Source: Hadesarchaea archaeon (GTDB lineage: Archaea > Hadarchaeota > Hadarchaeia > Hadarchaeales > Hadarchaeaceae). Taken from it: a stretch of 64,000 bases of DNA. The position numbers and the translations under genes are program-made. Shown here one piece after another: positions 7,844 through 57,516 of this stretch (positions within the stretch are counted from its first letter, which is position 1; each line of letters begins with the position of its first letter). Under the pieces are notes generated by a model, which worked only from the letters and a program-made list of their open reading frames with translations, did no database searches and was not told the origin of the DNA. Where the stretch lies: the NCBI GenBank assembly GCA_030601675.1, contig JAUWBN010000001.1:11027-75026 (forward strand). Reading direction: 5' to 3'.

Positions 7844-8029
7844 CTATATGTAAGATGAAACTATGATCGACACGAAGAGCGCGATGATGAGTATCATCAT
7901 GATTAACCTACTACGTGCTACGCGCTTCTGTTGTTTCTTGAAGATGTCCTCGCACGAGGGTGAGCAGAAAAATTTATCGGGCTCAATCGCCTTCCCGCAA
8001 ACAATGCAATGTTTATGATCATCGACCAT
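7844..8029 (-). CDS. Small Zn-ribbon plus C-terminal transmembrane protein (DUF2116-like)
   Basis: HCIVCGKAI...FCSPSCE ribbon followed by a hydrophobic tail. Start placed at MVDDH, which avoids overlap with pyrH. Confidence 0.45.
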   Translation of the reverse strand: MVDDHKHCIVCGKAIEPDKFFCSPSCEDIFKKQQKRVARSRLIMMILIIALFVSIIVSSYI

Positions 8030-8033
8030 CTTA

Positions 8034-8720
8034 TCATCCTGGCACAATCGTAGTGCCACTATGCTTCGCTCCCCTTAAAATCTCTTGTAAGCGTTTGATC
8101 TCGTGCCTCCCCAGCACAAGCGTTCGGATACCCGTCCGCTGGATGAGCTTCGCGGCCACGGGGTCGATAACTATGCTGACCCCCGGTTCCATTTTTTTGA
8201 CCGCCACCAACTTCATGAGATTCTGCACGGTCATCGTCTCGAGCTTCTTCGCTCTCGGGTCAAGTTTAGGGTCAGCTGTGTAGACCCCACCCACATCCAT
8301 GAAGAAAACCAAAAGTTCGGACTTGCTCGAGCTGGCCAACATCGCGGCGACCGCATCGGTGGTCTGGCCTGGCATTGTGCCGCCCATCACGGGCACCTTG
8401 CCCTTGAGCATCGCCCTGATAGCCGCTTCAAATGTGGTAAAGGGTTCCCGCTCCGCGAGATCGCCGAGGGCGGCAATCAGCAGGCGGGCGTTCAGGCGCG
8501 TGACATCTATGCCTATGAGGTCGCAGTGGGTGCTTGAGGCCTTCAGTTTTCGTGCCACTTGGATGTACTTGCGCGAGGGCCTTCCCCCGCCAGTGACGAC
8601 GAGGATCTCATGCTTTCGCGACTTTAGCGCACGGAGCGCCTGAGCTATCTCTCGAATGCAGCCCACGTCCGGCTCATCCGGTGCCAAGATCGAGCCGCCA
8701 AAGCAAAGCGTCACTCGCAT
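8034..8720 (-). CDS. pyrH: Uridylate (UMP) kinase
   Basis: Amino-acid-kinase fold with VVTGGG and TTDAVAA motifs. 228 aa, archaeal PyrH-like. Confidence 0.85.
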   Translation of the reverse strand: MRVTLCFGGSILAPDEPDVGCIREIAQALRALKSRKHEILVVTGGGRPSRKYIQVARKLKASSTHCDLIGIDVTRLNARLLIAALGDLAEREPFTTFEAAIRAMLKGKVPVMGGTMPGQTTDAVAAMLASSSKSELLVFFMDVGGVYTADPKLDPRAKKLETMTVQNLMKLVAVKKMEPGVSIVIDPVAAKLIQRTGIRTLVLGRHEIKRLQEILRGAKHSGTTIVPG

Positions 8721-8774
8721 CCCATCGCCAAAATAAGTTCGGCGTCATGTTATTAACTCTCGCGGTCGAAATCT

Positions 8775-10046
8775 ATGATGGCGATGCAAATGCCCATCGA
8801 TACCAAGACGCGTTACCAATTCAGGCGGATGCTCGAAGATCTGGCTGGCAAGCGCGGCCGAGGGACCGAGCTCATCTCGGTCTACATCTCCCCAGATTTC
8901 GAGCTCACCAAGGTCATCCAACAGCTCCGGGATGAGCAGGGGACGGCAAGCAACATAAAATCGAAGACGACCCGAAAGAACGTGATAAGCGCCCTCGAGC
9001 GGATCATCCAGTTCCTGCGCACCTACGCCGACACCCGCAGGCGCCCCCCCTCGAACGGGATGGCCATATTTTGCGGGAACGTGGCTGGGCGTGAGGACAT
9101 CGCGGACATCCAGCTCTACTGGGTCGAGCCCCCCGAGCCGATAACCATTCGCATGTACCGCTGCGACCAAGAGTTCGTGCTCGAGCCGCTGCAGGATATG
9201 CTTCAGGTTAGGGAGACCGTGGGGGTGCTCGTCATGGATCGGCGAGAGGCGACGCTCGCGACACTGCGGGGCAAACATGTCGAGATCGTGAGGAGGTTGA
9301 CCTCCGGCGTCCCAGGGAAACACGGCAAGGGAGGGCAGTCTGCACGGCGGTTCGAGCGGTCGATAGAGATCGCCGCTCATGAATACGCGAAGCGCGTCGC
9401 CGAAGCCGCCAACGAGATATTTTCGCATATCCCCGACCTGCGGGCGATCCTAGTCGGTGGCCCAGGGCCGACGAAGGACGAATTTTTGAAGAGTGAATTG
9501 TTGCACGAGGTGGTCAAGCGTAAAATCGCCGGGGTGCTCGATACCGGCTACACCGACGAACAGGGGGTAAAGGAAGTGGTCAACAAATCGGGTGAGGTTC
9601 TCGCCGATCTCGATATCCTGAAGGAAAAATCACTGGTGCAGCGCTTCATGGAGGAGCTCGTCGCGGGCAAGGGGTTGGTCGCATACGGCGAGCGGGAGAT
9701 CAGACAATTCCTCGAGCTGGGGGCGGTGAAGCTGCTCCTGATTTCAGAGGACCTGCGGAGGAGCCGTGCGCTCGCGCGATGCCAAGCCTGCGGGCACGAG
9801 CTGCGGGAAACCGTTGACGATATCAAAACTTACCAGAGGGAGCTGGCGGGGCGAGCCTGTCCCAGCTGCGGCGAGACCAGGCTGGTGCTCCTGGAGAGCA
9901 AGGATGTAGTGCAGGAATTGCTCGAGCTGTCGGAGCGGTTCGGCGCGGGGGTGGAGTTCATCTCGACCGAAACCGAGGAGGGCAAGCAGCTTCGCGTGGC
10001 TTTCAAGGGCTTGGGGGCTATTTTGAGGTTCAGGCCAGCTGCGTGA
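8775..10046 (+). CDS. prf1: Peptide chain release factor aRF1
   Basis: GGQ motif (KHGKGGQSARRFER), an NIKS-like region (ASNIKSKTTRKN) and a C-terminal zinc ribbon. Confidence 0.9.
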   Translation: MMAMQMPIDTKTRYQFRRMLEDLAGKRGRGTELISVYISPDFELTKVIQQLRDEQGTASNIKSKTTRKNVISALERIIQFLRTYADTRRRPPSNGMAIFCGNVAGREDIADIQLYWVEPPEPITIRMYRCDQEFVLEPLQDMLQVRETVGVLVMDRREATLATLRGKHVEIVRRLTSGVPGKHGKGGQSARRFERSIEIAAHEYAKRVAEAANEIFSHIPDLRAILVGGPGPTKDEFLKSELLHEVVKRKIAGVLDTGYTDEQGVKEVVNKSGEVLADLDILKEKSLVQRFMEELVAGKGLVAYGEREIRQFLELGAVKLLLISEDLRRSRALARCQACGHELRETVDDIKTYQRELAGRACPSCGETRLVLLESKDVVQELLELSERFGAGVEFISTETEEGKQLRVAFKGLGAILRFRPAA

Positions 10047-10062
10047 TTTAATTGATTTTTGG
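10047..10062 (+). terminator. T-rich tract after prf1
   Basis: TTTAATTGATTTTTGG lies immediately after the stop codon, resembling an archaeal oligo-T terminator. Confidence 0.3.
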
Positions 10063-10240
10063 CCCACAATCCCTCGAATGACCTTTAGGCCCTGTTCAAC
10101 TGCGTCACCAGAAAACCCAGCAAATTATCGCGATTTTCATGGTTGAGGGTATATTTTTACCCCGTAAGCGATAAGAGGATATATGTGAACCCCACGACGG
10201 GGAGATTGCCCGAGGGGGAATGCAAAAAAGGAGGCTAAAA

Positions 10241-11224
10241 ATGAGTCCAAAGCTTATAGCATCGGCCTTAGTGTGTTTGCTGCTTACGTTTACACTCTCA
10301 GCGATGGCGGTGGGTGCTGTCTCGTCCTCCGGAACCATAATAAATGTCCCCAAGGATTACCCGACGATTCAAGCCGCCATAGACGCGGCCTCGGCGGGCG
10401 ACACGGTCTTGGTTGCGCCAGGGACGTACTACGAGAGCATTCAAATGAAGTCTGGGGTGACCATCAAGGGTTCGGGGGCAGACGTTACGATAATCCACGG
10501 CGACGGGAGTTGGTTTAAGTATCCAGATTGGGCATATACAGTTCTTGGGGCAAACGATAGCACCATCACGGGATTCACCATCACCGGAAGCATTTATGGC
10601 ATCATCTGCTACAACTCCTCCCCGACGATTACCAACAACGTGATCACCTGCAACAGGTGGCATGGCATCTTTAACGCCCAGTCCTCCCCGACGATTACCA
10701 ACAACGTGATCACCGGCAATGGGTCGCGGGGCATCTGGAGCAGAAACTCCTCCCCGACGATTACCAACAACATAATCACCGGCAACGTCTATAGCATCTT
10801 CAACTACAACTCCTCCCCGACGATTACCTACAATGACATATGGGGCAACGGGTTCAATAGCATCTCCAACTACCGCACCTCCCCGATAATAGCAAATAAT
10901 ATATCCGCCGATCCGCTGTTCGTGGATCCCGCAAATGGCGACTACCGCCTACAGACAGGCTCGCCATCTATTGACGCTGGAACGAATGACGCACCCGGCC
11001 TACCGGAGACCGACTCCGATGGCAACCCCAGAATAGTTGATGGTGATGGCGACGGGGTAGCAATCGTCGACATGGGCGCATTTGAGTATCCCGGCGCAGT
11101 CCCACCGGGCTGGAGCGAAGGAAGGAAGACCGGCTGGAATGGCAATATGCCCCCAGGATTGGACAAGCAGGATAAAACACCCCAAGGTTTCGACCAAGGC
11201 AGGAAGGAAGGCTGGCAGAGATAG
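10241..11224 (+). CDS. Secreted right-handed parallel beta-helix repeat protein
   Basis: Signal peptide MSPKLIASALVCLLLTFTLSAMAVGA. Repeated SSPTITNNVITGN coils of the NosD/pectate-lyase-like type. AAAGGAGG sits 6 nt before the ATG at 10241. Confidence 0.7.
   Translation: MSPKLIASALVCLLLTFTLSAMAVGAVSSSGTIINVPKDYPTIQAAIDAASAGDTVLVAPGTYYESIQMKSGVTIKGSGADVTIIHGDGSWFKYPDWAYTVLGANDSTITGFTITGSIYGIICYNSSPTITNNVITCNRWHGIFNAQSSPTITNNVITGNGSRGIWSRNSSPTITNNIITGNVYSIFNYNSSPTITYNDIWGNGFNSISNYRTSPIIANNISADPLFVDPANGDYRLQTGSPSIDAGTNDAPGLPETDSDGNPRIVDGDGDGVAIVDMGAFEYPGAVPPGWSEGRKTGWNGNMPPGLDKQDKTPQGFDQGRKEGWQR
10606..10880 (+). repeat. Tandem coding repeats of about 66 nt (4.3 copies) inside the beta-helix gene
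   Basis: TCCTCCCCGACGATTACCAACAAC recurs at 10606, 10672, 10738 and 10801. Confidence 0.8.
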
Positions 11225-11323
11225 TACAACCGCATCCCAAGCCCGGTTGTGGAAAAGTCGGTGTTACTTAGGTTACCGGGACGAGGGTTGTGGGGCCTTA
11301 ACCCCCTTCCCTCTTGTTATTTT

Positions 11324-17998: not shown

Positions 17999-19828
17999 TC
18001 AAGATTTTGCCTTTAGGCGCTTCAAACTCTTGGAGATCTCCTCGGTGCTCCGGCGCATCGACCGCACCACGAAGATCAGCACGAACGCACCGATCACCAT
18101 AGCCAAGATGCCGACGACCAACATGACGTTGAACGCCGCCTCGCGCTCTGGTGATACGCTTTGACCGACCACCGTGAAGTACGAGAACTCCGTCGTCGTG
18201 GCTGAGTAGTAGAGATAAAGGTTATCCTCATCGGTGAAGTTCGTCAGCAGCTCGATCCATCGACCCTCCCCCTCACCGAATCGAAGCAACCTCACCGTGT
18301 CCTCGTCGATGTCGTTCATACTTATCCAAAGCTTCGACACCCTGAACTCTACAGTGGCGCTCTCAACCTGTTCCGATGCGGTTGTCCTCATCTCTAGATA
18401 ATGAGACACGATGCCCCTCTCGGCTGGCGGCACGACCACCCCTGCTGGTCTCTCGGAGAGCCGCTGCGCTTGGACCTCTATGTTCTCTATCGCTACCGCT
18501 AGGGTTACCCTGACCTTGCTCACGGGTTGATCTTTTTCAAAATTCACGTTGATGACTCGCTCGCTCTCTATCTCTACGCTCTCGACGTAGTTGTTCTCTA
18601 CCTCAATCGTTTGACCGACCGAGTTCTGAATGTTCTCGATCGCGACGGTAGCCGGACCTACCCAGTAACTTATTCGTGTGCCCGCTTCCCCGGTGACGAG
18701 CGCTAGGAGGGCGTTAACGACCGAGGAGCCCGTCCAAGTGTAGGTGGTGTCCGTCTGAGTGTGGCCGGACGGTGGGTTCTCCACTTCAGCACCCGAGGGC
18801 ACCCTCAGCGCGAACGTCACGTCTTCATTTTCTGCCACGACGCTGGGAATTTCAAGAGAGGTAGGCCAGTACTCCTGCAGCACGCCGAAGTCCACCACGA
18901 TCGTGTTGTTGGTTTGGGTCACCACACCCATCTCATCGGGCCGGAGCTCAAATTCAAAGTCAAGCCCGATTGTCGAGGTAACTCCGGCGGACTCCATTTG
19001 CAGCTCTAGCATCGCCGTCGTAGAGACAAGCCTGAATAGGATGTCCAACGTTAGCCCCTCGAGATCCTCTATACTCGTAATCGTTGTGGGGATGCTCCCA
19101 GTCCCCGTTGTTGTGATGCTCATCGGCAGCTCCCTCCGCAGCTCTGCCCCAAACGTCGAGCTCTCGGCGGTCATGGTCGCGCCGAAGGTCAATTTTGATG
19201 CCGCACCGTCCCAATCGAGCTCGGTAATGCTGAGGTCGGTTATTTCCAGATCATATTGAGCATACTCATATGTGAGCAATGGCTGAATCTTGTCTAGCAG
19301 CAACTGGTTGAACATCCCCGGCGCAAGCTTGTAAGCCGCTACCACCGTCGAGACCGTCTGCTTCTGCTCCTCGGTTAGGGGCAGGGCCAACCAACCGTTT
19401 GTGGCAAGGGTGAGCGTTCCCTCGCTCGGGGATGTCAGCTCGATGTTTATTTCCCAGCCCACGGATTTCGCGGGGGCTGTTAAGATTGAGTCAGATCCCG
19501 GAAGAACCGAACTTGCCGCAAAACTTGTTTCCTGCAGGGAAAGGACTGGGAGAGAAACTTCCAGAAGTACTGGCCCCGTCAAATAGGAGTAAAGCGAGTA
19601 AAGCGGGTTGGGTCCAGAGTAATCTATTCTTATATGGAGGCGCCCCGTGCTCTTGAACTCGAGGAGCAGGTCCAGCGAGACATTTTCTGGAACGCTTATC
19701 TCTGATACATCGGCTTCGGCTTGCCCCGCTACTGGAACACCCACGGCCAGAAAGTTAGCCAATAGGATGAGCGTCATCAAGAGCGCTATCGGACCCTTCA
19801 TTTTACCACGATTACTTTGAGTCCACAT
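17999..19828 (-). CDS. Large secreted, C-terminally membrane-anchored surface protein (no recognised catalytic domain)
   Basis: N-terminal signal peptide (MWTQSNRGKMKGPIALLMTLILLANFLAVGVPVAGQA). Thr/Ser-rich beta-rich body. C-terminal TM helix plus KR-rich tail. Confidence 0.6.
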   Translation of the reverse strand: MWTQSNRGKMKGPIALLMTLILLANFLAVGVPVAGQAEADVSEISVPENVSLDLLLEFKSTGRLHIRIDYSGPNPLYSLYSYLTGPVLLEVSLPVLSLQETSFAASSVLPGSDSILTAPAKSVGWEINIELTSPSEGTLTLATNGWLALPLTEEQKQTVSTVVAAYKLAPGMFNQLLLDKIQPLLTYEYAQYDLEITDLSITELDWDGAASKLTFGATMTAESSTFGAELRRELPMSITTTGTGSIPTTITSIEDLEGLTLDILFRLVSTTAMLELQMESAGVTSTIGLDFEFELRPDEMGVVTQTNNTIVVDFGVLQEYWPTSLEIPSVVAENEDVTFALRVPSGAEVENPPSGHTQTDTTYTWTGSSVVNALLALVTGEAGTRISYWVGPATVAIENIQNSVGQTIEVENNYVESVEIESERVINVNFEKDQPVSKVRVTLAVAIENIEVQAQRLSERPAGVVVPPAERGIVSHYLEMRTTASEQVESATVEFRVSKLWISMNDIDEDTVRLLRFGEGEGRWIELLTNFTDEDNLYLYYSATTTEFSYFTVVGQSVSPEREAAFNVMLVVGILAMVIGAFVLIFVVRSMRRSTEEISKSLKRLKAKS

Positions 19829-20036
19829 TTTACTTAAACCTAAGCATTTTTTCTGCCGATTCTTACGTTCCTCAATGGGGAATCTCGCCCGCCCCCACGG
19901 TTTAACGCTTTTTGGGTCGAGAACCACGTGCGATCACCCTGACGAATTCTAAGCTCAATTTAGTTTGTGGCAATACATGCAGCCCAAATGGTACAAATTC
20001 TGAAAGCGTGCAAAACCTGTGCTAAATCGCCCGCTT

Positions 20037-23399: not shown

Positions 23400-25110
23400 C
23401 CTCACCCAGCCGATTTTAAGGGTGTTGCAACTGGCACCGATTTCCGTATTATTTATGGAATACTTTCGGTGCCCTCTGTGGGAAAATCGCTTAAAAGCGC
23501 ATGCCGGATTGCAGGTCGGGTTGAAAATGACTGAATGCATTAGCTCCGTGCGCTGGACTGAACAATTAGGAAGCCGCATTTTCCCGGATGGCGAGTTGTT
23601 ATGATGATCAATGCTATCGGCCTCTTAGAAGAAGAGTACCCTAAATTAAGAGTAAAAGTTACAAAAGAACTGAGAAAAAGACTATTTCTTCATTTAGATA
23701 ACTCAACAGGATATCTAGCACAATCACTTAAAATTAGCGAAGTTTCTTTAAGAAGAAAATTTTTCGATAGAAAAGGATATTCTTTTAAACTCTGCGAGCT
23801 TTTGTTCCTCGCCAAGAAAGCCAAAATCGGTGGGGATGAAGTATTCTCTAGCATTACAGATATAAAAATTGGTGATAATGCATTCTGGACGAATTTACCA
23901 ACGAAAATTTCAGTTGATGAAGAATTTACAGAAGGAATTGGATACTATGTTGGTGATGGTCGTTTAAAACCAAATAAAGGTTTATCGACGACGAACACCG
24001 ATGTAAAAGCCATAAAAATTTTTCTTAATTGGTTAAAGAAATACTTCAGTGTTGATGATAAAGATGTCATAATAAATATCTATTTGCCGTGCTTGGATTT
24101 TAATGTAAATTCAGAAAAGAAAAAATGGTCAAAACTGCTTGAAGCAAACATCAATTCCGTTAAAAGCAAATATGAGTACAAAAATCATCATAAAATCCTG
24201 ATAGAAGTTTGCTATTTCAGAAAAATAGCTAAGCTTATCTTGGACAAATTGGGTCCGATTATCAAAGAAAAATGCCTCGCCAATAAATCTCTTGCAAAAG
24301 CGTACATTAGAGGGATAATGACCGCTGAAGGATCTGTTAAACACGATGAAAAAAGTCACCAAAAAGCTATTCACTTGAAAATGAAAAATAAATCAGAAGT
24401 TGAATATGTGTTCAAACTCCTTCAATTTGTAGGTTTGACCCCTAGTTTCTTATTTTCTAAACAAGATAATGAATGGTTAACAACTATCAGCGGCTGCGAT
24501 GAACTTGAGAAATTAGATGAAATGGATATTTTTAAATCCAATGGTGAAAGAAGAAGAAAATTCAAGGAAATCTTAAGCGATTATCAACACAGACAGGTGA
24601 AAAAAGGTCGAGTGAAAGAATTCTATCTCACTAAATTGTTGGAATTTGAAAGAAAGCATGGAGAATATTGTACTGCCAAGGAACTATCTAAATACCTTAA
24701 AAGAAGTAAATCTAGAGTATTGAATGTTCTAAGAGAGCTAAGGGAAAGTAAACTAGTGATTGGCGAAAGGATAATAAAAATTGGGAAGCCATTTAAATTT
24801 GCTTTGACTGAAAAAGGGGAAGAATTCATTTCGAAGTAGTTTCGATCGGTTTTCCAGCTTTATCAAATTCTATTTCATCGTTAAGCAATTTCTTAAGGAC
24901 ATCTGGTAATTTTTCAATGTCCACTCTAATTTGCTTCGTCGTGTCTCTATGACGGATGGTTACATCATTTTGTTTTAGAGTTTCGTAATCGATAGTAACA
25001 CAGTAGGGGACACCTATCTCATCAGCTCTGGCATATCTCCTTCCTATTGATCCAGCATCGTTGTACTCAGCCATGAATCCCTTTAGCTTTAGATTCCCGT
25101 ACACCTCCCG
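23400..25110. mobile_element. Putative horizontally acquired AT-rich island carrying a LAGLIDADG-endonuclease-like gene and extending into the glyS 3' end
   Basis: Sharp GC drop relative to flanks. The boundaries do not coincide with gene boundaries on the glyS side. Confidence 0.35.
23604..24839 (+). CDS. I-DmoI-like double-motif LAGLIDADG homing-endonuclease homolog with N-terminal HTH-like and C-terminal winged-HTH extensions
   Basis: Motif 1 GIGYYVGDGRL and motif 2 AYIRGIMTAEGSV match the I-DmoI motifs (LLGLIIGDGG / FIKGLYVAEGD). The whole 412-aa ORF is AT-rich. Confidence 0.5.
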   Translation: MINAIGLLEEEYPKLRVKVTKELRKRLFLHLDNSTGYLAQSLKISEVSLRRKFFDRKGYSFKLCELLFLAKKAKIGGDEVFSSITDIKIGDNAFWTNLPTKISVDEEFTEGIGYYVGDGRLKPNKGLSTTNTDVKAIKIFLNWLKKYFSVDDKDVIINIYLPCLDFNVNSEKKKWSKLLEANINSVKSKYEYKNHHKILIEVCYFRKIAKLILDKLGPIIKEKCLANKSLAKAYIRGIMTAEGSVKHDEKSHQKAIHLKMKNKSEVEYVFKLLQFVGLTPSFLFSKQDNEWLTTISGCDELEKLDEMDIFKSNGERRRKFKEILSDYQHRQVKKGRVKEFYLTKLLEFERKHGEYCTAKELSKYLKRSKSRVLNVLRELRESKLVIGERIIKIGKPFKFALTEKGEEFISK

Positions 25111-26355
25111 GGCCTTCTCAGGCATGCCCGCGCGGTTGAGCAAGGGGAAAACGCCGACCTCGATTGGGGCCAAGTCCTTCTTCAGCCGGAAGTACTTGCG
25201 CTTCTTCTCCTGCACGTATGCATGTTCAAGCGCACAATAAAGTGGACGATCGATGCCGTAGGAGGGCTCGACCACGTGGCAAAGCACCTTCCGCTTCTTG
25301 TCAGCTGAAAATATCGTCAAGTCCTCCCCGCTGAACTGGGCGTGGCGGGAGAGGTCGTAATCCGTGCGGTAGGCTATCCCCGCGATCTCGACCCAGCCGA
25401 ACCGCTCCGTCGAAACCTCGGCGTCCCAAGTTTCGCTGGAATAATGAGCTCTTTGCCCGGGGGTCTGCTCCCTGAAGCGAATCACCTCGTTCGGAATGCC
25501 CAAGTCCAGCAAGAAGCGCTTGGTGAGCGCGAGGTAGTAGGCCATGAACTCGTTACAGACCAGCTTCTCCTTGACCGCCTGCTCGACCGTCACCTCGGTC
25601 AACTGCTCCTTGCCCTTCTCTTGGTCTTTCGCCAACCAAAGCCTGAGTTGTTCACCCGCCAGCTCGGAAAACCTCGGGTGATGCGGGTCCCCGGGGTCGA
25701 AGAAGACCTCGGCCTCTGCCATCGTGAACTCGCGAAGCCTTATGATACCCTGACGCGGGGAGATTTCGTTACGATAGCCCTTGCCGATCTGCACCACCCC
25801 GAAAGGCAACTTACCCCGCGCGTGGCGCTGGAGCCGCTTGAAATCGATGAAAATTCCCTGTGCAGTCTCTGGCCTAAGGTAACCCACGCGCTGGCTCCCA
25901 GGCCCGATCGCCGTTCGAAACATCGCGTTGAAATCAAAAATTTTTCCCAGCTCGCCACCGCAGTCTGGGCAGCGCACTTTGTGTTTTTTAAAGAACCGAT
26001 CCATCTCCTCCTTCGGCATCCCCTCGATGTCCTTGCCCGCCTGTTCGCGCGCCAAGTCCGCGACCCTGAAAGCAGCCCCACACTTCTGACACTCGACCAT
26101 CGCGTCAACGAAGTGCTCGACATGCCCGCTCGCCTTCAGAACCTCCTCGGGCACAATGCTCGGCGAATCTATCTCGAAGAACCCTTCCCGAACCACGTAA
26201 AATTCGCGCCACTTCTGGATGATCTTATTTTTTAGCAGCGCCCCGAGCGGCCCGAAATCGTAGAAACCTGCCACGCCTCCGTAAATTTCGAACGATGGCC
26301 AGATGAACCCGCGCCGCTTAGCTAGCTCCATGACTTCCTCGTGCTTTTTGGACAC
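24826..26355 (-). CDS. glyS: Glycine--tRNA ligase (archaeal/eukaryotic-type, class II)
   Basis: GFIWPSFEIYGG and class II motifs. 509 aa. The last ~90 codons fall in AT-rich DNA. The 3' end overlaps the LAGLIDADG-like ORF convergently by 14 nt. Confidence 0.9.
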   Translation of the reverse strand: MSKKHEEVMELAKRRGFIWPSFEIYGGVAGFYDFGPLGALLKNKIIQKWREFYVVREGFFEIDSPSIVPEEVLKASGHVEHFVDAMVECQKCGAAFRVADLAREQAGKDIEGMPKEEMDRFFKKHKVRCPDCGGELGKIFDFNAMFRTAIGPGSQRVGYLRPETAQGIFIDFKRLQRHARGKLPFGVVQIGKGYRNEISPRQGIIRLREFTMAEAEVFFDPGDPHHPRFSELAGEQLRLWLAKDQEKGKEQLTEVTVEQAVKEKLVCNEFMAYYLALTKRFLLDLGIPNEVIRFREQTPGQRAHYSSETWDAEVSTERFGWVEIAGIAYRTDYDLSRHAQFSGEDLTIFSADKKRKVLCHVVEPSYGIDRPLYCALEHAYVQEKKRKYFRLKKDLAPIEVGVFPLLNRAGMPEKAREVYGNLKLKGFMAEYNDAGSIGRRYARADEIGVPYCVTIDYETLKQNDVTIRHRDTTKQIRVDIEKLPDVLKKLLNDEIEFDKAGKPIETTSK

Positions 26356-50048: not shown

Positions 50049-51281
50049 TTGGTGCCTCCTGTGTCCAAGTCTTGGGCCGATAAATACCAACCCAGCAAAC
50101 TCAAAGAAGTAGTTGGACAACCTCAAGCCCTCCGGGCAATGCTCGATTGGGCGGAAAGCTGGGAGAAGGGCAAACCGAAGAAACCAGCCCTCCTGCTCTA
50201 CGGGGCAGCGGGGACGGGGAAAACCATTGCCGCAGCTATTTTGGCTCAAGAGTTCGGGTGGGACCTGATCGCGCTCAACGCAAGCGACAAACGCACCTTT
50301 CAGGTGATCCAACAGGTCGCCGGCACGGCCGCGACGACGGGGACGCTCTTCGCGGGGGCCGGGGGCAAGCGGCTGATCGTGCTCGACGAAGCCGACAACG
50401 TCTACGGTGTCGCCGATCGAGGGGGGTATCGTGCAATCGCCCAGCTGCTCGAGGAAACCCGGAACCCACTCATGCTGATTGCCAACAACCAATACGCGAT
50501 ACCGTGGGAGATTCGGGGGGCTTGCTTAGCGATAAACTTCAGGCACCTGACCCAGGGCACCATCGCAAGCACGCTCGAGCGGATATGCCGCGCCGAGGGG
50601 ATCGAGGCCGAGCCGCAGGCGCTGAAAACCATAGCCGAGGGCGCACGGGGTGACCTGCGCTCGGCGATTAACGACCTTCAAACCATGGGGATGGGCAAGA
50701 AGCGCCTGACCGCCAAGGATGTCGTACTCTACCGGCGTGACCGGGAGGCGAGCGTATTCGATGTGCTGAAGCAGCTCGTCTACGCCAAGGGGGTCAAGGA
50801 AGCCCGGGAGCTGCTCTGGGCGCTCGACAAGGCCCCCGACGATGCGCTCGCGTGGATAGATGAGAATATCCCCCGGATGCTGACCGAACCCGCCGATCGG
50901 GCCCGGGCCTACGACGCCATCTCGCGGGCGGATATATTCTTGGGCCGCGCCCGGAGGAGGCAAGCCTACGGGCTTTGGAGGTACGCTAGTGACCTCATGA
51001 GCGCCGGGGTAGCACTCTCCCGGAAAGGCACCCTCAAATTCGTCCGCTTCCAGCCGCCGAGCTCCGGGGTTTACTTCGGCAGGACGCGAGCGGCGCGGGG
51101 CCTGCGCGATGGCGTGGCGAAGAAAGTTGCCTCCCACTGTCACACCTCCTCCCGGGTCGCGCGGAAACACTTCCTGCCCTACTTGGGATTAATTTTCAAC
51201 AACGACAGGAAGGCGGCTGCCCTGATAGCGGCTGAACTCGAACTGAGCGATGCCGAGGAGAAATACCTGAAATCGATGTGA
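50049..51281 (+). CDS. rfcL: Replication factor C large subunit
   Basis: WADKYQP start, Walker A GAAGTGKT, DEADN box. 410 aa. Confidence 0.85.
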   Translation: MVPPVSKSWADKYQPSKLKEVVGQPQALRAMLDWAESWEKGKPKKPALLLYGAAGTGKTIAAAILAQEFGWDLIALNASDKRTFQVIQQVAGTAATTGTLFAGAGGKRLIVLDEADNVYGVADRGGYRAIAQLLEETRNPLMLIANNQYAIPWEIRGACLAINFRHLTQGTIASTLERICRAEGIEAEPQALKTIAEGARGDLRSAINDLQTMGMGKKRLTAKDVVLYRRDREASVFDVLKQLVYAKGVKEARELLWALDKAPDDALAWIDENIPRMLTEPADRARAYDAISRADIFLGRARRRQAYGLWRYASDLMSAGVALSRKGTLKFVRFQPPSSGVYFGRTRAARGLRDGVAKKVASHCHTSSRVARKHFLPYLGLIFNNDRKAAALIAAELELSDAEEKYLKSM

Positions 51282-51301
51282 TGGGCCCGGGAGGATCATC
51301 C

Positions 51302-52438
51302 GTGAAGATAGTTGAAAAGCTTCGGCTCGGTAGGCTCGCGACTTTTGTCCCGAACAAAAGGCTTCCCGTCCACAATTGGTTTTACTTCAAGGAGGCTTTC
51401 TCGCGGGACCTCGTGCTCCTGCTTGCTGAAACTTGGGGGCTCGGCGAAGGCGATCTCGTCTTAGACCCATTCGTCGGGTGCGGAACAACGCCGCTCGCGT
51501 GCAAGCAACTTGGGGTAGATAGTATTGGTTACGATGTACATCCAATCATGTTGTTCGCCTCGCGCGTGAAGCTCAGGGATTACAACGCTGAAGAACTCAG
51601 GGAAGCAGTTCGAGGGCTGATGAAATCGAAGTTCGAGAGACCAGAGGTTGAGGTGCCGAGCTTCGTCGCGAGAGTTTTTCGGGAGCCCGTGCTCGATGAC
51701 ATCGCCTTCTTCAAGCGAAAAATCCTAGAGGTTGAAGACGAGGGGATTCGCGAATTTCTGTTGCTGGGGTTGATGAACGCGGCGATGAGATGCAGCTGGG
51801 CGCACAAGGATGGCGCAGCGATAAGGGTCGTCAAGAAACCAGTGCCGCCCCTCCGAAAGGCGCTCAAAAGACAACTCCTGAGGATGTGCGGCGATGTCGA
51901 GCGGTTCGAGAGGGAGGCCTCCAGGGTGACAATCGAGCACTGCGATGCGCGAAAGCTCAAGCTGGCCGACGAGAGCGTCAACGCCATCATAACCTCACCA
52001 CCCTACCTGAACAAGCGGGAGTACATCCACGCCTACCGAATCGAGCAGCAGTTGCTGGACCTAGGTGCTCCAGCTCAGGGACAACTCATCGGCGTGCGGG
52101 AGGAGGAAGCGGCGGAGGATTTTTCCGAGGTTGGGGAATTCGTCGAGGGTAAACCGCTCGAAGCGAAACTTTATTTCAATGACATGTTTGCAGCACTGCA
52201 GGAGCTTTACCGCGTTTGTAAGCCTGGAGCCAAAGTTGCCCTCGTCACGTCCGATGCCTGCTCCCCTGAGGGCGTGGTCGAGGTGTGCGTTCCGCTGAGC
52301 GAGCTGGCGGAACGGGCGGGTTTCAAAGCGAAGCGCATGCTGGTGGTGAACCGGCGTTTTTGTACGACGCCAGCGAGGAAGAAAGTTGGGGTCACGCAGG
52401 AGGGGCTGTTGCTCTGGGAAAAGCGAGCATCTAAATAA
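51302..52438 (+). CDS. N6-adenine/N4-cytosine-type SAM-dependent methyltransferase with atypical motif order
   Basis: Motif I DPFVGCGTT near the N-terminus and motif IV TSPPY about 170 aa later. GTG start with GGGAGGAT SD. Moderately reduced GC. Confidence 0.6.
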   Translation: MKIVEKLRLGRLATFVPNKRLPVHNWFYFKEAFSRDLVLLLAETWGLGEGDLVLDPFVGCGTTPLACKQLGVDSIGYDVHPIMLFASRVKLRDYNAEELREAVRGLMKSKFERPEVEVPSFVARVFREPVLDDIAFFKRKILEVEDEGIREFLLLGLMNAAMRCSWAHKDGAAIRVVKKPVPPLRKALKRQLLRMCGDVERFEREASRVTIEHCDARKLKLADESVNAIITSPPYLNKREYIHAYRIEQQLLDLGAPAQGQLIGVREEEAAEDFSEVGEFVEGKPLEAKLYFNDMFAALQELYRVCKPGAKVALVTSDACSPEGVVEVCVPLSELAERAGFKAKRMLVVNRRFCTTPARKKVGVTQEGLLLWEKRASK

Positions 52439-52482
52439 CAATATTTTTCAGATTATTGTGTACTCTAATGATAGGGGTTAAC

Positions 52483-55400
52483 ATGAACCAACAACCCGTC
52501 AGGTATTACCTCGATCCACGGCACCGCTTCGTCGTGGAGAACTACAACTGGGCCAAAGCGTTCTCCAATTTTTTCCCTGGGATTGGGGGCAAGTGGGGGA
52601 TTCCGATGTGGGTCTACTATGTCAGCAGGGGGCAGGGTATCTGCAGCATGGGCGTGAGGGATAAAGATCATGCGATTCTTGAATTCTACTCTTTTAACAA
52701 GGCTCTTCAGCTCGTGGGGCAACAGGGTTTCCGAACCTTCATAAAAATTGACGGCCACACGCTCTACGAACCCTTCCAAAGAAACGAGGGGAAAAGGATT
52801 AAACAGAAAATGATTGTCTCCTCCGAGGAGTTAGAAATCAACGAGCTCAACCCCGAACTCGGGATAGAAACAAATGTGCTCTATTTTCCCCTAGTCAGCC
52901 AGCCGGTAGCAGCCCTCGTGAGGGAATTGAGGATAAAGAACCTCAAAGCTCACCCTATCAAACTAGAGTTAATCGATGGCCTCCCACGAATCTTGCCTTA
53001 TGGCCTGAACCAGAGCCATGTCAAATTTATTGCTAGGCACATCGAGGCTATGATGAGCGTGGAGCAACTAAACGGCATCCCTCTTTTCCGCCTGAAACAA
53101 ACGCCAGGGGACATCTCCCAAGTTGGAAAGATCTCCGGGGACAATTTTTATCTAACCCTTCTTGGTAAGGAAAGCAAGATATTGAAGGGCCATTCCATTG
53201 TCGATCCGTGCATCGTCTTCGGTGAATCGGAGACCTATGATCATCCTTGGGTGTTTGAAAAGAACTCCGTCCAGGAGCTTCTGGCGATGAAACAGGTTCG
53301 GGAAAACAGAACTCCCTGCGCTTTCACTGCCATCTCCCTGAACTTGCCTGCAGGCGGGGAAATTACCCTGTACTCGCTGGTCGGCAATGCTCCCGATGAG
53401 AAAAAATTGCGCGCGCTTTTAAGATCCCTCGGGACAAGAGATTTCCTCCACCGCAAACGCGAGGAAAACAGGGAGATCATCAAGAGGATAAAAAACCATG
53501 CCTTCACCGTCTCGAGCTCCTTGGAGTTCGACCAATACTGCCAGCAGAATTTCCTGGATAATGTAATCCGGGGAGGCATGCCGCTGATATTCGACACGGC
53601 CGAGGGCAAGAGTGCTTTTTACCTTTACTCTAGACAGAACGGGGACTTGGAGCGAGATTATCACTACTTTGTTCTGGAACCTACTTACCTCTCCCAGGGA
53701 AACGGTCATTACCGCAGCGTCCTCCAAAACCGCCGAACTGACACTTGGTTCTTCCCGGAAGTGGAGGATCTGAACATAGTTACATTCCTCAACCTGCTCC
53801 AAACCGACGGCTACAACCCCCAGGAGGTCACCGGCCTAACTTACACCGCCAAGGATATCGCTGGGCTCAAAAAATGGTTGAAAAGCGTCGTCAAGGACGA
53901 AAGGTTATTCCATGAACTACTCGAGATGGTCAGCCGCCCGTTTACCCCCGGCGAATTCATCATGAAACTGGAGAAATGTCGAAAACCCAGAGATTACGAG
54001 AAGATCCCGAGAGAACTCCTGCTTTTCTGTAGGCGAAATGATGTCGGCGATTTACACGAAGGGTTCTGGGTGGACAACTGGACCTACAACCTCGACCTGA
54101 TCGATGATTTCTTGGCGATCTATCCGGAAAGACTTGAAGAACTCTTAATCGATCGCAAGACCTACATCTTTTACGATAACCCGGACATCGTCCTGCCTCG
54201 CGATAAAAAATACGTGCTAGTGGATGAACAAGTCCGGCAGTACCGTGCGGTAATCCGCGACCAAGAAAAACTCCAAATGATCAAGAGCCGCTCGGAGTAC
54301 CCTACCCGGGTGCGAACCAAACACGGCCGCGGCCGCATCTACCAAACCAACCTTCTGGTAAAGCTCCTCTCCATCGCGGCAAACCGAATCGCCACCATTG
54401 ACCCGCAAGGAATTGGAATGGAGATGGAGGCCGATAAACCGGGCTGGTGCGATTCCCTGAACGGGCTGCCCGGGCTTCTAGGATCATCCCTCTGTGAAAC
54501 CATAGAATTGGAGAGACTCTGCCGGTTCCTCCGAGAAAGCCTCGATGAAATCAAACTGGGAGATGATGCCCCGATCCTTCTCTACGAAGAATTGTATGAA
54601 TTAATAATCGGTTTAGGTAAGGCAATGAAAAAAAGATTGAACTCCAAATATCGTAAAAAGAGCTTGGCCTACTGGGAGGAGAGTAACCAGCTGAAAGAGC
54701 GTTATCGGGAAAAGACGAAGATGGGGATCAGCGGGCTGGAACGGAAAATGACCGTTACCGAGTTGAAGCTTTTCATAGATAATTGTCTGAAGCTTATCGG
54801 CGAGATTTTCAAGCCCGAAAACAGGGAAAAAATCTTGAGCAAAAACGGCACTCCTTACACCTATTTCATCAACGAGGTCTTGGGATACGAGCCGATCTGG
54901 AGGGACCGAAAGAAAAAGATACCCATGCTCAGCTCCTCTGGGAATCCTTTAGTTAATCCCAAAAAATTCCGCCAGAGACCTGTGGCCCTCTTCTTAGAAG
55001 GCCCGGTTCATCTGTTGAGGGTTCACAGGGAGCGGAACAAGCAAATTTACGACAGCGTTAAAAGAAGCCAGCTCTACGATCGGGAACTCGAGATGTATAA
55101 AAATTGTGAATCATTGGAAAAAGAATCATTTGAGATCGGAAGGATTCGTGCTTACGCTCGGGGATGGCTCGAGAACGAGTCTATCTACCTTCACATGGAA
55201 TACAAATGGCTTCTGGAGATGTTGCGGAGCGGCCTTTACCGGGAATTCTGCCAGGACATCAAAACTGCCCTAATCCCGTTCCTCAATCCGGAGATGTACG
55301 GGAGAAGCATCCTGGAAGGAGTGTCATTCATCGTCAGCAGCGCCTTTCCTGACGAGAAACTCCACGGCCGAGGATTTCAACCTCGCTTAAGTGGCGTCAC

Positions 55401-55803
55401 CTGTGAGATGCTCCACATCTGGACCATCATGGTGGCGGGTGAAACCCCGTTCTTCTTGGATGAGAAAGGACAACTCGCGATGAAACTTCGGCCCATTCTT
55501 CCTAACTGGCTTTTTACCCGGAAAAAAAGGACCTGCCGTTACTATGACGGGGGAGGAAAATCAAGGGAAGTGGTAATCCCAAAAAACGCCTTTGCATTCA
55601 AATTTATCGGGAAAACCCTAGTGGTCTACCACAACCAAAAGCGAAAAAACACCTTCGGCAAAGGTGGGGTGAAAGTCGTCTCTTACCGGCTGAAATATAA
55701 GGGCGGGAAGGAGAAGACCGTGACCGGGGATACCTTGGGAACCTTCTTGGCGCGGGATGTGCGTGAAGGCCGGGTGGAACGGATCGATGCTGTTCTCTCT
55801 TAA
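52483..55803 (+). CDS. Large (about 1100 aa) soluble hypothetical protein; weak resemblance to GH94-type glycoside phosphorylases
   Basis: No TM segments, no Walker A, no obvious nuclease motifs. GWCDSLNG (W-x-D) and an N-terminal W...FSN...G.GG.W segment faintly recall the GH94 catalytic and N-domain motifs. About 48% GC. AGGGGT SD before the ATG at 52483. Confidence 0.4.
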   Translation: MNQQPVRYYLDPRHRFVVENYNWAKAFSNFFPGIGGKWGIPMWVYYVSRGQGICSMGVRDKDHAILEFYSFNKALQLVGQQGFRTFIKIDGHTLYEPFQRNEGKRIKQKMIVSSEELEINELNPELGIETNVLYFPLVSQPVAALVRELRIKNLKAHPIKLELIDGLPRILPYGLNQSHVKFIARHIEAMMSVEQLNGIPLFRLKQTPGDISQVGKISGDNFYLTLLGKESKILKGHSIVDPCIVFGESETYDHPWVFEKNSVQELLAMKQVRENRTPCAFTAISLNLPAGGEITLYSLVGNAPDEKKLRALLRSLGTRDFLHRKREENREIIKRIKNHAFTVSSSLEFDQYCQQNFLDNVIRGGMPLIFDTAEGKSAFYLYSRQNGDLERDYHYFVLEPTYLSQGNGHYRSVLQNRRTDTWFFPEVEDLNIVTFLNLLQTDGYNPQEVTGLTYTAKDIAGLKKWLKSVVKDERLFHELLEMVSRPFTPGEFIMKLEKCRKPRDYEKIPRELLLFCRRNDVGDLHEGFWVDNWTYNLDLIDDFLAIYPERLEELLIDRKTYIFYDNPDIVLPRDKKYVLVDEQVRQYRAVIRDQEKLQMIKSRSEYPTRVRTKHGRGRIYQTNLLVKLLSIAANRIATIDPQGIGMEMEADKPGWCDSLNGLPGLLGSSLCETIELERLCRFLRESLDEIKLGDDAPILLYEELYELIIGLGKAMKKRLNSKYRKKSLAYWEESNQLKERYREKTKMGISGLERKMTVTELKLFIDNCLKLIGEIFKPENREKILSKNGTPYTYFINEVLGYEPIWRDRKKKIPMLSSSGNPLVNPKKFRQRPVALFLEGPVHLLRVHRERNKQIYDSVKRSQLYDRELEMYKNCESLEKESFEIGRIRAYARGWLENESIYLHMEYKWLLEMLRSGLYREFCQDIKTALIPFLNPEMYGRSILEGVSFIVSSAFPDEKLHGRGFQPRLSGVTCEMLHIWTIMVAGETPFFLDEKGQLAMKLRPILPNWLFTRKKRTCRYYDGGGKSREVVIPKNAFAFKFIGKTLVVYHNQKRKNTFGKGGVKVVSYRLKYKGGKEKTVTGDTLGTFLARDVREGRVERIDAVLS

Positions 55804-56618
55804 GATGTATTGGAAGCCGACAATTTTTTGAGGAGTAGGCGCACCATCGCCTCGTAGCCCGAGTGCTCACGACCCCTTAGGTACTTGATGAATTTCGAAA
55901 CTGCGCGCGCGTCGGGCCTGAGCGCGACTGAGGGATATCGGACGCTCACCAAGATCAGCCCCTCCGCCGGCGCTGGCCGCATCGCTTGCTTTGCCTGCCC
56001 CTCAAGCATCCGTTCGAACTCGTCCAAGCTGAGCTTGCCCGTCCCCACGGCGAGCAGCGCCCCCACCATCCGCCGCACCTGTTGCCAGAGGAAGGCCCGG
56101 GCGATGAAATCGAAGCTGAGGATTTTCTGCCCGCGAACGTTCGCCTGTTCGAGCTCCCCGATGGTCGACCGCCCCCACTCGTGCTTGCAGAGGTGCTTGA
56201 AATCGTGGACGCCCTCGAGCAACCTCGCGGCTTGGCGGGCGAGGAGCAGGTCGAAGCCTGGGGGCGCCTCGCAAATGTAGCGATAGTGTTTGCTTTGCGC
56301 TTGGGTGCGGGGGTTGAAATCAGGTTTAACCTCGGCGGCTGTTAGCACCGCGATGTTTCGGGGCAGGGCGGCGTTCAGCTCCCGCACGTTCGGCTCCCTG
56401 CGCACGTCCAATGCCACCACCTGACCAATAGCGCTCACGCCTCGGTCGGTACGCGCGGCCACCCGATATCGAGCCTCCTTTAACTTGCGATATAGCCCAC
56501 ACCGCTCGAAAGCCCTCAACAATTCAGCCTCGATGGTCGGTCGATTGGGTTGTCGGACGAAGCCGAAGTAACGCGAGCCATCATACGCTACGAGAAACGC
56601 GTACCTCACGGAGCGCAC
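55800..56618 (-). CDS. truA: tRNA pseudouridine synthase A (TruA/Pus10-unrelated TruA family)
   Basis: VAYDGSRYFGF start and catalytic RTDRGVSA motif. GTG start at 56618 overlaps the moaA 3' end by 38 nt in another frame. Confidence 0.8.
   Translation of the reverse strand: MRSVRYAFLVAYDGSRYFGFVRQPNRPTIEAELLRAFERCGLYRKLKEARYRVAARTDRGVSAIGQVVALDVRREPNVRELNAALPRNIAVLTAAEVKPDFNPRTQAQSKHYRYICEAPPGFDLLLARQAARLLEGVHDFKHLCKHEWGRSTIGELEQANVRGQKILSFDFIARAFLWQQVRRMVGALLAVGTGKLSLDEFERMLEGQAKQAMRPAPAEGLILVSVRYPSVALRPDARAVSKFIKYLRGREHSGYEAMVRLLLKKLSASNTS
55821..55830 (+). terminator. Oligo-T tract after the large hypothetical gene
   Basis: CAATTTTTTG lies about 20 nt after the stop codon, between convergent genes. 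Confidence 0.3.
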
Positions 56619-57516
56619 CTTTGAAATATGGCTCCCGCCGCGCGATGGCTTCGGCGAACGCCTTGCGGGCCCCCTCGAGGTCACCCGTACTGATGTGGGT
56701 GAGTAAGTCAACGAGGTTGTCGTTGCGCATCAGACATGGCTTGAGGTGGCCATCGGGGATCAGGCGCAGGCGGGTGCAGTGAGCGCAGAACTCCGAGTTG
56801 TGCATCGGCTTGACGACCTCAACCTCACCGCCCGGCAAGATGTATTTTCTGCGCGCCTGCATCGAGCGGCGGGTCCGAACCGCTACCGCCCGCTCCCGAA
56901 GGCTTTGCTCTACGTCGTCTAGGTCGCAGTGATAAATGGTAAAATTTTTTCCACCCACCTCGAGCAATTCGATGAGTTGCAAGATGATGCCACGCTTTGA
57001 TGCATAAGCGATCATTCGTTCGACCTCATGTTTGTTTATCCCTGCCAGCAGGACCATATTGAGCTTCACCGGCGCCAAGCCAGCGGCGAGGGCGGCATCG
57101 ATGCCCTCGAATACCTCATGTAGCAACTTCCTCCCTGTTATCCGTTTGTAAGTTGTCTCGTCAAGAGTGTCCAAGCTGATGTTAATGCGGTTGAGCCCAG
57201 CATCAGCGAGTTCAGCAGCAATTTTCGCAAGCAAGGTGCCGTTTGTAGTCATCGAAACTTCATCCATGCCAGCTGCTGTCACAGCTGTGACAATTTCTAT
57301 GATGTCCTTGCGCAGAAGTGGTTCGCCGCCCGTTAGCTTGACTTTGCGCATTCCAAACTCTTTTGCCAGCTGCACAATTTTCCCTATCTCCCCAGCGCTC
57401 ATTTGCCTTGAACCAGCGCTACAACCCTCGCGGTGGCAGTAAAAGCAGTTCAAGTTACACTCCTCGGTAACCGAAATCCTCAGACCAGTAACCGGCCTGC
57501 CGAATTTATCCCGCAC
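56581..57516 (-). CDS. moaA: GTP 3',8-cyclase MoaA (radical SAM)
   Basis: CNLNCFYCH radical-SAM motif and C-terminal GTP-binding Cys motif. Confidence 0.9.
   Translation of the reverse strand: MRDKFGRPVTGLRISVTEECNLNCFYCHREGCSAGSRQMSAGEIGKIVQLAKEFGMRKVKLTGGEPLLRKDIIEIVTAVTAAGMDEVSMTTNGTLLAKIAAELADAGLNRINISLDTLDETTYKRITGRKLLHEVFEGIDAALAAGLAPVKLNMVLLAGINKHEVERMIAYASKRGIILQLIELLEVGGKNFTIYHCDLDDVEQSLRERAVAVRTRRSMQARRKYILPGGEVEVVKPMHNSEFCAHCTRLRLIPDGHLKPCLMRNDNLVDLLTHISTGDLEGARKAFAEAIARREPYFKGALREVRVSRSV

Follow-up and report, generated by a model that had tools for sequence, protein, structure and literature searches.

The gene at positions 52483 to 55803 (+ strand) of a 64,000-nucleotide stretch of DNA from Hadesarchaea archaeon (GenBank assembly GCA_030601675.1, contig JAUWBN010000001.1, positions 11,027 to 75,026 of the forward strand; the whole stretch is called the window below) encodes a protein of glycoside hydrolase (GH) family 161. 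With a probability of about 0.75, the product is an inverting glycoside phosphorylase that acts most likely on beta-1,3-gluco-oligosaccharides and is probably cytoplasmic. The gene is an intact and well-conserved member of this known family and does not represent a new kind of system. An initial annotation, made from the letters of the window alone, had left two readings of the product, an unrelated protein or a divergent glycoside phosphorylase of archaea that carries extra domains. The phosphorylase reading holds, but the protein is not a member of GH94 (~14% identity).

Placement in family GH161

A phmmer search against the sequences of solved structures returns 9h8v_A (E=6.4e-212) and 9qqk_A (E=6.6e-212), each as a single alignment that runs from residue 14 or 15 to residue 1103 of the query and spans residues 2-1030 of the solved GH161 chains. 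The similarity on which GH161 membership depends is thus significant and extends over the full length. These two entries and 9sr2 are near-identical, but the names under which they were deposited differ, namely 'cellobiose phosphorylase' versus 'gh161 phosphorylase' and GH161A. The structures of GH161 enzymes that the Protein Data Bank (PDB) holds were released in 2025, and a search of the literature on the solved entries found nothing relevant. The family dates from 2019, when it was set up on the basis of Ochromonas OcP1 and orthologues of it from bacteria (PMC6484121). Together with GH94 and GH149 it forms clan GH-Q, in which the catalytic Asp, the residues of the -1 subsite, and the phosphate-binding His are shared, and it is set apart from GH94 in the published phylogeny (PMC6484121).

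The domain databases give a far weaker signal. The sole Pfam match of the protein is the GH94 catalytic domain PF17167 at residues 848-981 (E=0.034), with 13.3 bits against a cut-off of 27 bits, and the 'faint GH94-like signals' of the initial annotation are an accurate description of this match. The NCBIfam scan yields only NF058639, the GH149 equivalog model, at 74.1 bits against a cut-off of 1150 bits, with residues 42-207 as the best stretch. In the phmmer search of the PDB, the GH149 chain 6hq6 appears at E=2e-9 with its best stretch at residues 43-191, and no GH94 chain appears at E<=10. The N-terminal domain is the only part of the protein that still matches GH149 by sequence. Neither the PF17167 threshold nor a comparable similarity connects the protein to GH94, and neither the NF058639 cut-off nor a full-length similarity to Pro_7066 or EgP1 connects it to GH149, a family of beta-1,3-glucan phosphorylases from Euglena and bacteria. 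The protein is therefore a member of GH161 and is related to GH94 at clan level only.

The protein looked unclassifiable because Pfam has no GH161 model. Pfam and NCBIfam scans alone are insufficient here, as their sub-threshold GH94 and GH149 matches would lead to the verdict 'no confident family', which is what the initial annotation had stated and which the fit to GH161 (E ~6e-212, TM 0.88/0.94) overturns. A precomputed Pfam domain is absent in all 120 homologues listed. Among these, most of the homologues named by their source are called 'hypothetical protein', and several homologues carry the name 'cellobiose phosphorylase'. The GH161 family is systematically mis-annotated or unannotated. 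Domain-based annotation undercounts the GH161 route to beta-glucan use in sediment and subsurface genomes, because the family is invisible to Pfam and NCBIfam reaches the present protein only via a weak GH149 match. One listed homologue (P0117) carries the name 'deoxycytidine triphosphate deaminase'.

Predicted structure

The AlphaFold2 model, built with 37 homologues, has a mean predicted local distance difference test score (pLDDT) of 82.4 and a predicted template modelling score of 0.87. When the model is compared with the PDB by Foldseek, the closest structures are 9gy9, a GH161 beta-1,3-glucan phosphorylase of bacterial origin, and 9qqk, a GH161 phosphorylase with a beta-1,3 glucooligosaccharide. 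Both give template modelling (TM) scores of 0.88 by query and 0.94 by target, at an identity of 37% that counts gapped columns, and the superposition extends over ~1100 columns with a root-mean-square deviation of 2.7-3.0 A. The GH149 beta-1,3-oligosaccharide phosphorylase 6hq6 follows with TM scores of 0.75/0.73-0.74 (identity 14%), the GH94 laminaribiose phosphorylase 6ggy with 0.63/0.75 (14%), and several other GH94 enzymes with 0.48-0.54/0.54-0.72 (9-11%). The fold of the model is that of solved GH161, GH149, and GH94 phosphorylases, and the check for a six-hairpin barrel that the initial annotation had proposed thus came out in favour of its phosphorylase reading.

The model comprises the four parts of the GH161 architecture, which are an N-terminal beta-sandwich, a linker, a barrel, and a jelly roll at the C-terminus (Table 1). 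GH161 and GH149 have the same domain order, and their catalytic domain is an (alpha/alpha)6 barrel (10.1101/2025.04.05.647330). By homology, the mostly helical catalytic domain of the present protein is assigned as a probable barrel of the same kind. Two motifs had been quoted in the initial annotation, NYNWAKAFSN...GIGGKWG and GWCDSLNG, and both are present. The first lies in the N-terminal beta-sandwich at residues 20-39 (NYNWAKAFSNFFPGIGGKWG) and is part of a conserved stretch, and the second occupies residues 654-661. Residues F16, Y21, N22, S28, P32, G33, G36, G39, P41, and W43 of the N-terminal domain are invariant in the 37 homologues. So are R363, G364, and G365, which form the R363-G-G motif at the end of the linker. 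The conserved residues of the catalytic domain are R384, R391, D392, W529, D531, E839, H843, E897, H904, S948, R968, and S970. The Lys/Gly-rich C-terminus, rightly taken for beta structure, is modelled as strands in residues 1016-1105. On the contrary, the excess of about 300 residues over GH94 enzymes, which had been regarded as an oddity, is the normal size of the two related families, as the solved GH161 and GH149 chains have 1039-1175 residues.

The protein and the solved GH161 enzymes (9gy9, 9h8v, 9qqk/9sr2) share the full-length alignment, the domain order, the GW.D..NG loop, and the motifs ERDY, QNRR, W.D.W.YN, FLEGPV, WLENESI.LHMEYK, and RLSG. In contrast, the query is ~60-70 residues longer (1106 versus 1039-1046; some of the excess lies, for example, around 800-830), its W-x-D loop has Cys in the middle where the solved chain has Tyr, and its host is an archaeon whereas the solved enzyme 9gy9 is bacterial. 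GH149 Pro_7066 (6hq6/6hq8) resembles the protein in clan, size, multi-domain fold (TM 0.75), and a recognizable N-terminal sequence, but differs from it in the low identity of 14%, the score of 74 versus 1150 bits, and its separate CAZy family. The GH94 enzymes (laminaribiose phosphorylase 6ggy, cellobiose and chitobiose phosphorylases) have the catalytic scaffold, the W-x-D general-acid loop, and inverting phosphorolysis in common with it. They differ, however, in identity (9-15%), TM score by query (0.48-0.64), and length (~780-985 residues), and their Pfam model is not passed.

Segments with pLDDT below 50 are found at residues 38-42, 52-71, 174-188, 207-216, 383-401, and 652-661. Several of them overlap, or lie next to, stretches of high conservation, among which are the catalytic loop and the ERDY motif. 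The active site of GH94 enzymes is completed in the dimer. It is possible that the low-confidence segments of the active site likewise belong to a site that takes its full form only upon dimerisation or ligand binding.

Catalytic residues and proposed reaction

The initial annotation had proposed the Asp of the W-x-D motif as the general acid and had named its conservation among homologues as a check. The motif lies in the loop KPGWCDSLNG, which aligns with GWYDALNG of 9h8v_A and places W655 and D657 opposite W623 and D625 of that chain. Both W655 and D657 are invariant in all 37 homologues (50-86% identity) and in each of 76 proteins from genome loci, whose identity goes down to 41%. The catalytic Asp of the GH161 loop is thus present, and D657, encoded by codon 54451-54453, is predicted to act as the general acid. 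In the enzyme THA_1941 of Thermosipho africanus, W623, N624, and D625 form the catalytic loop, E840 is a glucose ligand, and R345, R373, S891, and S913 are phosphate ligands; a change of R345, R373, D625, or E840 inactivates the enzyme (10.1101/2025.04.05.647330). The essential D625 of THA_1941, which bears the same number as the aligned Asp of 9h8v_A, supports the role proposed for the Asp.

R363, R391, E897, S948, and H904 are invariant in the 37 homologues, and position 970 is Ser or Thr. The spacings of 28, 51, and 22 residues equal those of R345/R373 and of E840/S891/S913 in THA_1941. Because of these identical spacings and the alignment with 9h8v_A, residues R363, R391, W655, D657, E897, S948, and S970 would correspond to R345, R373, W623, D625, E840, S891, and S913 of THA_1941. 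Counterparts of the GH161 residues that bind glucose 1-phosphate and phosphate are accordingly present in the query, with H904 as the probable phosphate-binding His, and the motifs around them are conserved in 9h8v_A.

The middle residue of the loop varies within the family. Residue 656 is Cys in 12, Asn in 20, Tyr in 2, Leu in 2, and Ala in 1 of the 37 homologues, and Cys, Asn, Tyr, Phe, or Leu in the 76 locus proteins. A change of chemistry at Cys656 was considered and rejected, because the solved GH161 chain has Tyr at this position and the active THA_1941 has Asn.

By analogy with these enzymes, the protein would carry out phosphorolysis of beta-1,3-gluco-oligosaccharides to alpha-D-glucose 1-phosphate with inversion. 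The reaction would be (beta-1,3-glucosyl)n + phosphate <-> alpha-D-glucose 1-phosphate + (beta-1,3-glucosyl)n-1, and it would be reversible. Attack would take place from the non-reducing end of laminari-oligosaccharides. Following the mechanism established for inverting phosphorylases of clan GH-Q, Asp657 of the W655-C-D657 loop would protonate the leaving glycosidic oxygen, and phosphate, held by R363, R391, S948, S970, and probably H904, would attack C1 directly while E897 and W655 hold the glucose in the -1 subsite. The glucose 1-phosphate may then be passed by phosphoglucomutase to glycolysis, which would save one ATP per glucose as compared to hydrolysis. This would be a plausible ATP-saving entry of laminarin-type sugars into the metabolism of Hadesarchaea.

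Substrate and physiological role

The characterised GH161 enzymes listed are PapP, THA_1941, and OdBGP of Ochromonas danica, and all of them act on beta-1,3-glucans (PMC6484121; 10.1101/2025.04.05.647330). Beta-1,3-gluco-oligosaccharides are the most probable substrate of the present protein for this reason. The preferred chain length may follow either of two known patterns. Phosphorolysis by PapP from Paenibacillus polymyxa requires substrates with a degree of polymerisation of 3 or more, and glucose is not an acceptor for PapP, whereas THA_1941 uses glucose and laminaribiose. Both are of the same family as the query, which has equivalents, by spacing, of the seven THA_1941 residues, but THA_1941 has Asn in the W-N-D motif where the query has Cys. 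Several points weigh against the assignment to beta-1,3-glucan phosphorolysis. The protein belongs to an archaeal clade of which no member is characterised, it shares only 37% identity with the solved enzymes, and several specificities occur at comparable divergence in the sister family GH94. The catalytic loops are modelled with low confidence (pLDDT below 50 at residues 652-661, 383-401, and 52-71), and the mapping to THA_1941 numbering depends on spacing and the 9h8v alignment, not on a direct alignment. In addition, the neighbours in the window are housekeeping genes (Rad50, Mre11, RFC, DNA methylase, pseudouridine synthase, and molybdopterin genes), and in the part of the open reading frames (ORFs) of the 64 kb that was examined, no gene for a sugar transporter, a glucanase, or a phosphoglucomutase was identified.

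Some of these points would also suit an inverting phosphorylase of the GH161 fold with a different substrate, for example another beta-glucan linkage or another sugar 1-phosphate. Besides the modest identity to the solved beta-1,3 enzymes and a window without laminarin-utilisation context, this alternative can draw on the neighbour-joining tree, in which Hadesarchaea and Methanosarcinales form their own clade without a characterised member. The GH94 scaffold covers cellobiose, chitobiose, cellodextrin, laminaribiose, and cellobionic acid phosphorylases and a domain of cyclic beta-1,2-glucan synthase, and PapP itself takes disaccharide acceptors of other linkages. However, each listed characterised GH161 enzyme acts on beta-1,3-glucan, the residues of the -1 subsite and the phosphate site are fully conserved, and long active-site stretches, for example GWLENESI.LHMEYK, YGRSI.E..SFI.SS, and RLSG.T, are near-identical to those of the solved GH161 chain. 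A different substrate is thus unlikely, although it is the strongest of the alternatives.

The reaction could also be that of a beta-1,3-glucan phosphorylase, but with the role of turning over, or synthesizing by reverse phosphorolysis, an endogenous glucan reserve or envelope polymer instead of using imported laminarin. In vitro, GH161 enzymes readily catalyse synthesis (10.1101/2025.04.05.647330). In the archaeal loci examined, no transporter or secreted glucanase gene adjoins the gene. In one Hadesarchaea locus (L001, 77% identity) a divergent gene for a phosphoglucomutase/phosphomannomutase adjoins it. In three metagenome-assembled genomes (MAGs) of ANME-2-type Methanosarcinales (L009 828-4207, L010 240-3619, and L012 4258-7637), it is adjoined by a divergent unit of two genes, which encode a 776-residue GDE_C/MGH1-like glycosidase and a 350-residue GT4 glycosyltransferase. 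A GH15 gene lies ~3 kb downstream in Argoarchaeum (L003). The alkane- and methane-oxidising archaeal hosts are not known to consume sugars. On the other hand, no beta-1,3-glucan synthase is seen near any copy, and none of the neighbours recurs beyond one lineage, so that chance adjacency is possible. Storage of beta-1,3-glucan is known from eukaryotic algae, and an archaeal case is not known. Moreover, the GH161 of curdlan-degrading haloarchaea was assigned by its describers to curdlan breakdown (PMC9726719). An endogenous role is accordingly rather improbable for the present enzyme, and the direction in which the phosphorylase would run in the cell is presumed to be that of breakdown.

The same degree of doubt attaches to a broader proposal for the clade of Hadesarchaea and Methanosarcinales (GoM-Arc1 and ANME-2). 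Its GH161 enzymes might conceivably serve an endogenous role, the turnover of an archaeal beta-glucan, a reserve or an envelope polymer not described so far, or have a specificity new to GH161, in either case linked to the phosphoglucomutase, GDE_C-like/GT4, and GH15 genes that neighbour the gene in some loci. The setting of this proposal is that the hosts are strictly anaerobic subsurface archaea which are not known to consume sugars. As no neighbour is conserved across the family, the glucan may come either from the scavenging of laminarin-type oligosaccharides or from an endogenous polymer.

A GH94 cellobiose or chitobiose phosphorylase is highly improbable and effectively refuted by the Pfam score, phmmer, and Foldseek. 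The weak Pfam match (E=0.034), the 'cellobiose phosphorylase' label on several homologues and on PDB 9h8v, and the likeness of the W-x-D loop to W488/D490 of Cellvibrio gilvus cellobiose phosphorylase, the general-acid context of that enzyme, are outweighed by 13.3 bits against a cut-off of 27, an identity of 9-15% to GH94 structures with TM scores by query of 0.48-0.64 (0.88 for GH161), the published phylogeny that splits the two families, and the name of the near-identical 9qqk_A, a GH161 phosphorylase bound to a beta-1,3 oligosaccharide. The label 'cellobiose phosphorylase' has apparently been passed on to GH161 proteins by automatic annotation. The PDB entry 3acs, a 'W488F mutant', is among the Foldseek targets.

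There is a demand for beta-1,3-glucan phosphorylases as catalysts in beta-1,3-glucan synthesis (10.1101/2025.04.05.647330), and the divergent archaeal clade adds sequences to screen for this use.

Gene structure and start codon

The gene is a single unbroken ORF on the + strand with its stop codon at 55801-55803. The initial annotation had correctly recognized this ORF, but had combined the start at 52483 with a length of 1115 residues, which belongs to the first possible start, a TTG at 52456 in the same frame and nine codons earlier. The ATG at 52483 gives 1106 residues. It is favoured over the TTG because an identical NCBI protein of 1106 residues exists (P0001), the close homologues start with the same MNQQPV N-terminus as the ORF product, and a GGGG run lies upstream. 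This Shine-Dalgarno-like run is 6-9 nt 5' of the ATG and downstream of an AT-rich intergenic stretch, and the short leader that contains both may act as promoter and ribosome-binding site, as judged from its sequence. A scan with bacterial-type sigma-70 promoter and terminator models gave a background level only, and the scan model is not applicable to an archaeon. The N-terminus of the product is without a hydrophobic signal-like stretch, which makes a cytoplasmic location of the enzyme probable, with oligosaccharides that are imported or of internal origin as its substrates.

The GC content of the gene is 0.497, and that of its third codon positions (GC3) is 0.627, as compared to window means of 0.568 (standard deviation 0.053) and 0.687 (standard deviation 0.091). 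Both values are low yet within ~1.3 standard deviations, and a similar modest dip is seen in most related loci. Recent horizontal transfer, considered on the basis of composition, was rejected on these grounds.

Table 1. Parts of the GH161 gene and its leader in the window.
Feature	Position	Strand	Basis and remarks
Short intergenic leader	52431..52482	+	TATA-like AT-rich stretch ~52440-52448, GGGG run 52474-52477
Complete coding sequence, GH161-family glycoside phosphorylase	52483..55803	+	1106 codons plus stop; ORF, phmmer, Foldseek
N-terminal beta-sandwich domain, residues 1-305	52483..53397	+	AlphaFold2 secondary structure
Helical linker, residues 306-364	53398..53574	+	AlphaFold2 helices 306-316, 321-340, 347-364
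Mostly helical catalytic domain with beta-hairpin insertions, residues ~365-988	53575..55446	+	AlphaFold2 helices, Foldseek
Catalytic loop KPGWCDSLNG, residues 652-661	54436..54465	+	Translation; GWCDSLNG = residues 654-661
C-terminal beta-sandwich (jelly-roll), residues ~989-1106	55447..55800	+	Strands 1016-1105, pLDDT mostly >90

Distribution of homologues

The nearest relatives of the protein, at 86%, 77%, and 64% identity, are in clusters whose named members are proteins of Hadesarchaea MAGs, and a genome scan finds Hadesarchaea genomes at 85% identity. The archaeal origin of the window, as the initial annotation had proposed, agrees with these relatives and with the RFC, Rad50/Mre11, GatD/E-like, and molybdopterin genes. 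A relative is encoded in at least 589 species-representative genomes. Relatives among these genomes are found in Methanosarcinales of GoM-Arc1/ANME-2 type (53-57% identity), Anaerolineae (50-59%), Elusimicrobia (~50%), and Omnitrophota and Planctomycetes (41-45%). In the neighbour-joining tree, Hadesarchaea group with one MAG labelled Proteobacteria, and together they are sister to the Methanosarcinales clade. Archaeal GH161 was already known from curdlan-degrading haloarchaea (PMC9726719). In the Methanosarcinales MAG CSMAG_1193 (L012), the GH161 homologue is split into two ORFs at 8001-9215 (404 residues) and 9444-11294 (616 residues); this is a pseudogene unless the split comes from an assembly or frameshift error.

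Genomic neighbourhood

The gene follows a DNA methyltransferase gene (51278-52438, +), and on its other side a pseudouridine synthase gene (55800-56711, -) converges with it. The genes for Rad50, Mre11, and RFC lie upstream of it and molybdopterin genes downstream, and GatD/E-like proteins are also encoded in the window. The gene order of the window is found again in the Hadesarchaea locus L005. Published GH161 clusters contain components of ATP-binding cassette (ABC) transporters, whereas none adjoins the gene in this window. Sugar ABC binding-protein and permease genes are located nearby in loci of Anaerolineae and Acidimicrobiia, as in the published clusters.

Conserved partners were sought by all-against-all BLASTP clustering of 983 ORFs from 83 sequences, 79 of which carry the gene. 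No neighbour family occurs in more than 11 of the 79 gene-carrying sequences, and there is no universal operon. The top neighbour clusters are a GatE/GatB-type protein, tetratricopeptide repeat proteins, a peptidase, and an amidase, and they look like lineage synteny. The GDE_C/GT4 unit of the ANME-2-type loci may be a small cluster for the turnover of glycans or compatible solutes. In GoM-Arc1 (Argoarchaeum), genes for a lysine-2,3-aminomutase-like radical-SAM protein and an acetyltransferase are directly upstream of the GH161 gene (L003 7498-9644, also L013, L015, and L030). This pair resembles ablA/ablB, which make the osmolyte N-epsilon-acetyl-beta-lysine.

Other features of the window

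The ORF of 642 residues at 17999-19927 (-) has no Pfam match at E<=0.001. The RFC large-subunit-like gene (50049-51281, +) is followed by the N6/N4 DNA methyltransferase gene named above (PF01555, E=8e-15), and the two genes overlap by 4 nt with the starts as listed. The pair recurs in Hadesarchaea at L001 21769-23327 and L005 4709-7095, and no restriction-enzyme gene was noticed near it. One possibility is that the methyltransferase is an orphan enzyme, coupled here to a gene of replication.

The strongest compositional outlier by far is the ORF of 412 residues at 23601-24839 (+), with a GC content of 0.324 and a GC3 of 0.298 (window GC 0.568). It matches Pfam LAGLIDADG_3 (E=4.6e-6) and is convergent with an ORF of 509 residues at 24826-26355 (-), with an overlap of 14 nt. 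It looks like a free-standing homing-endonuclease-like gene and is probably a recently acquired mobile gene.

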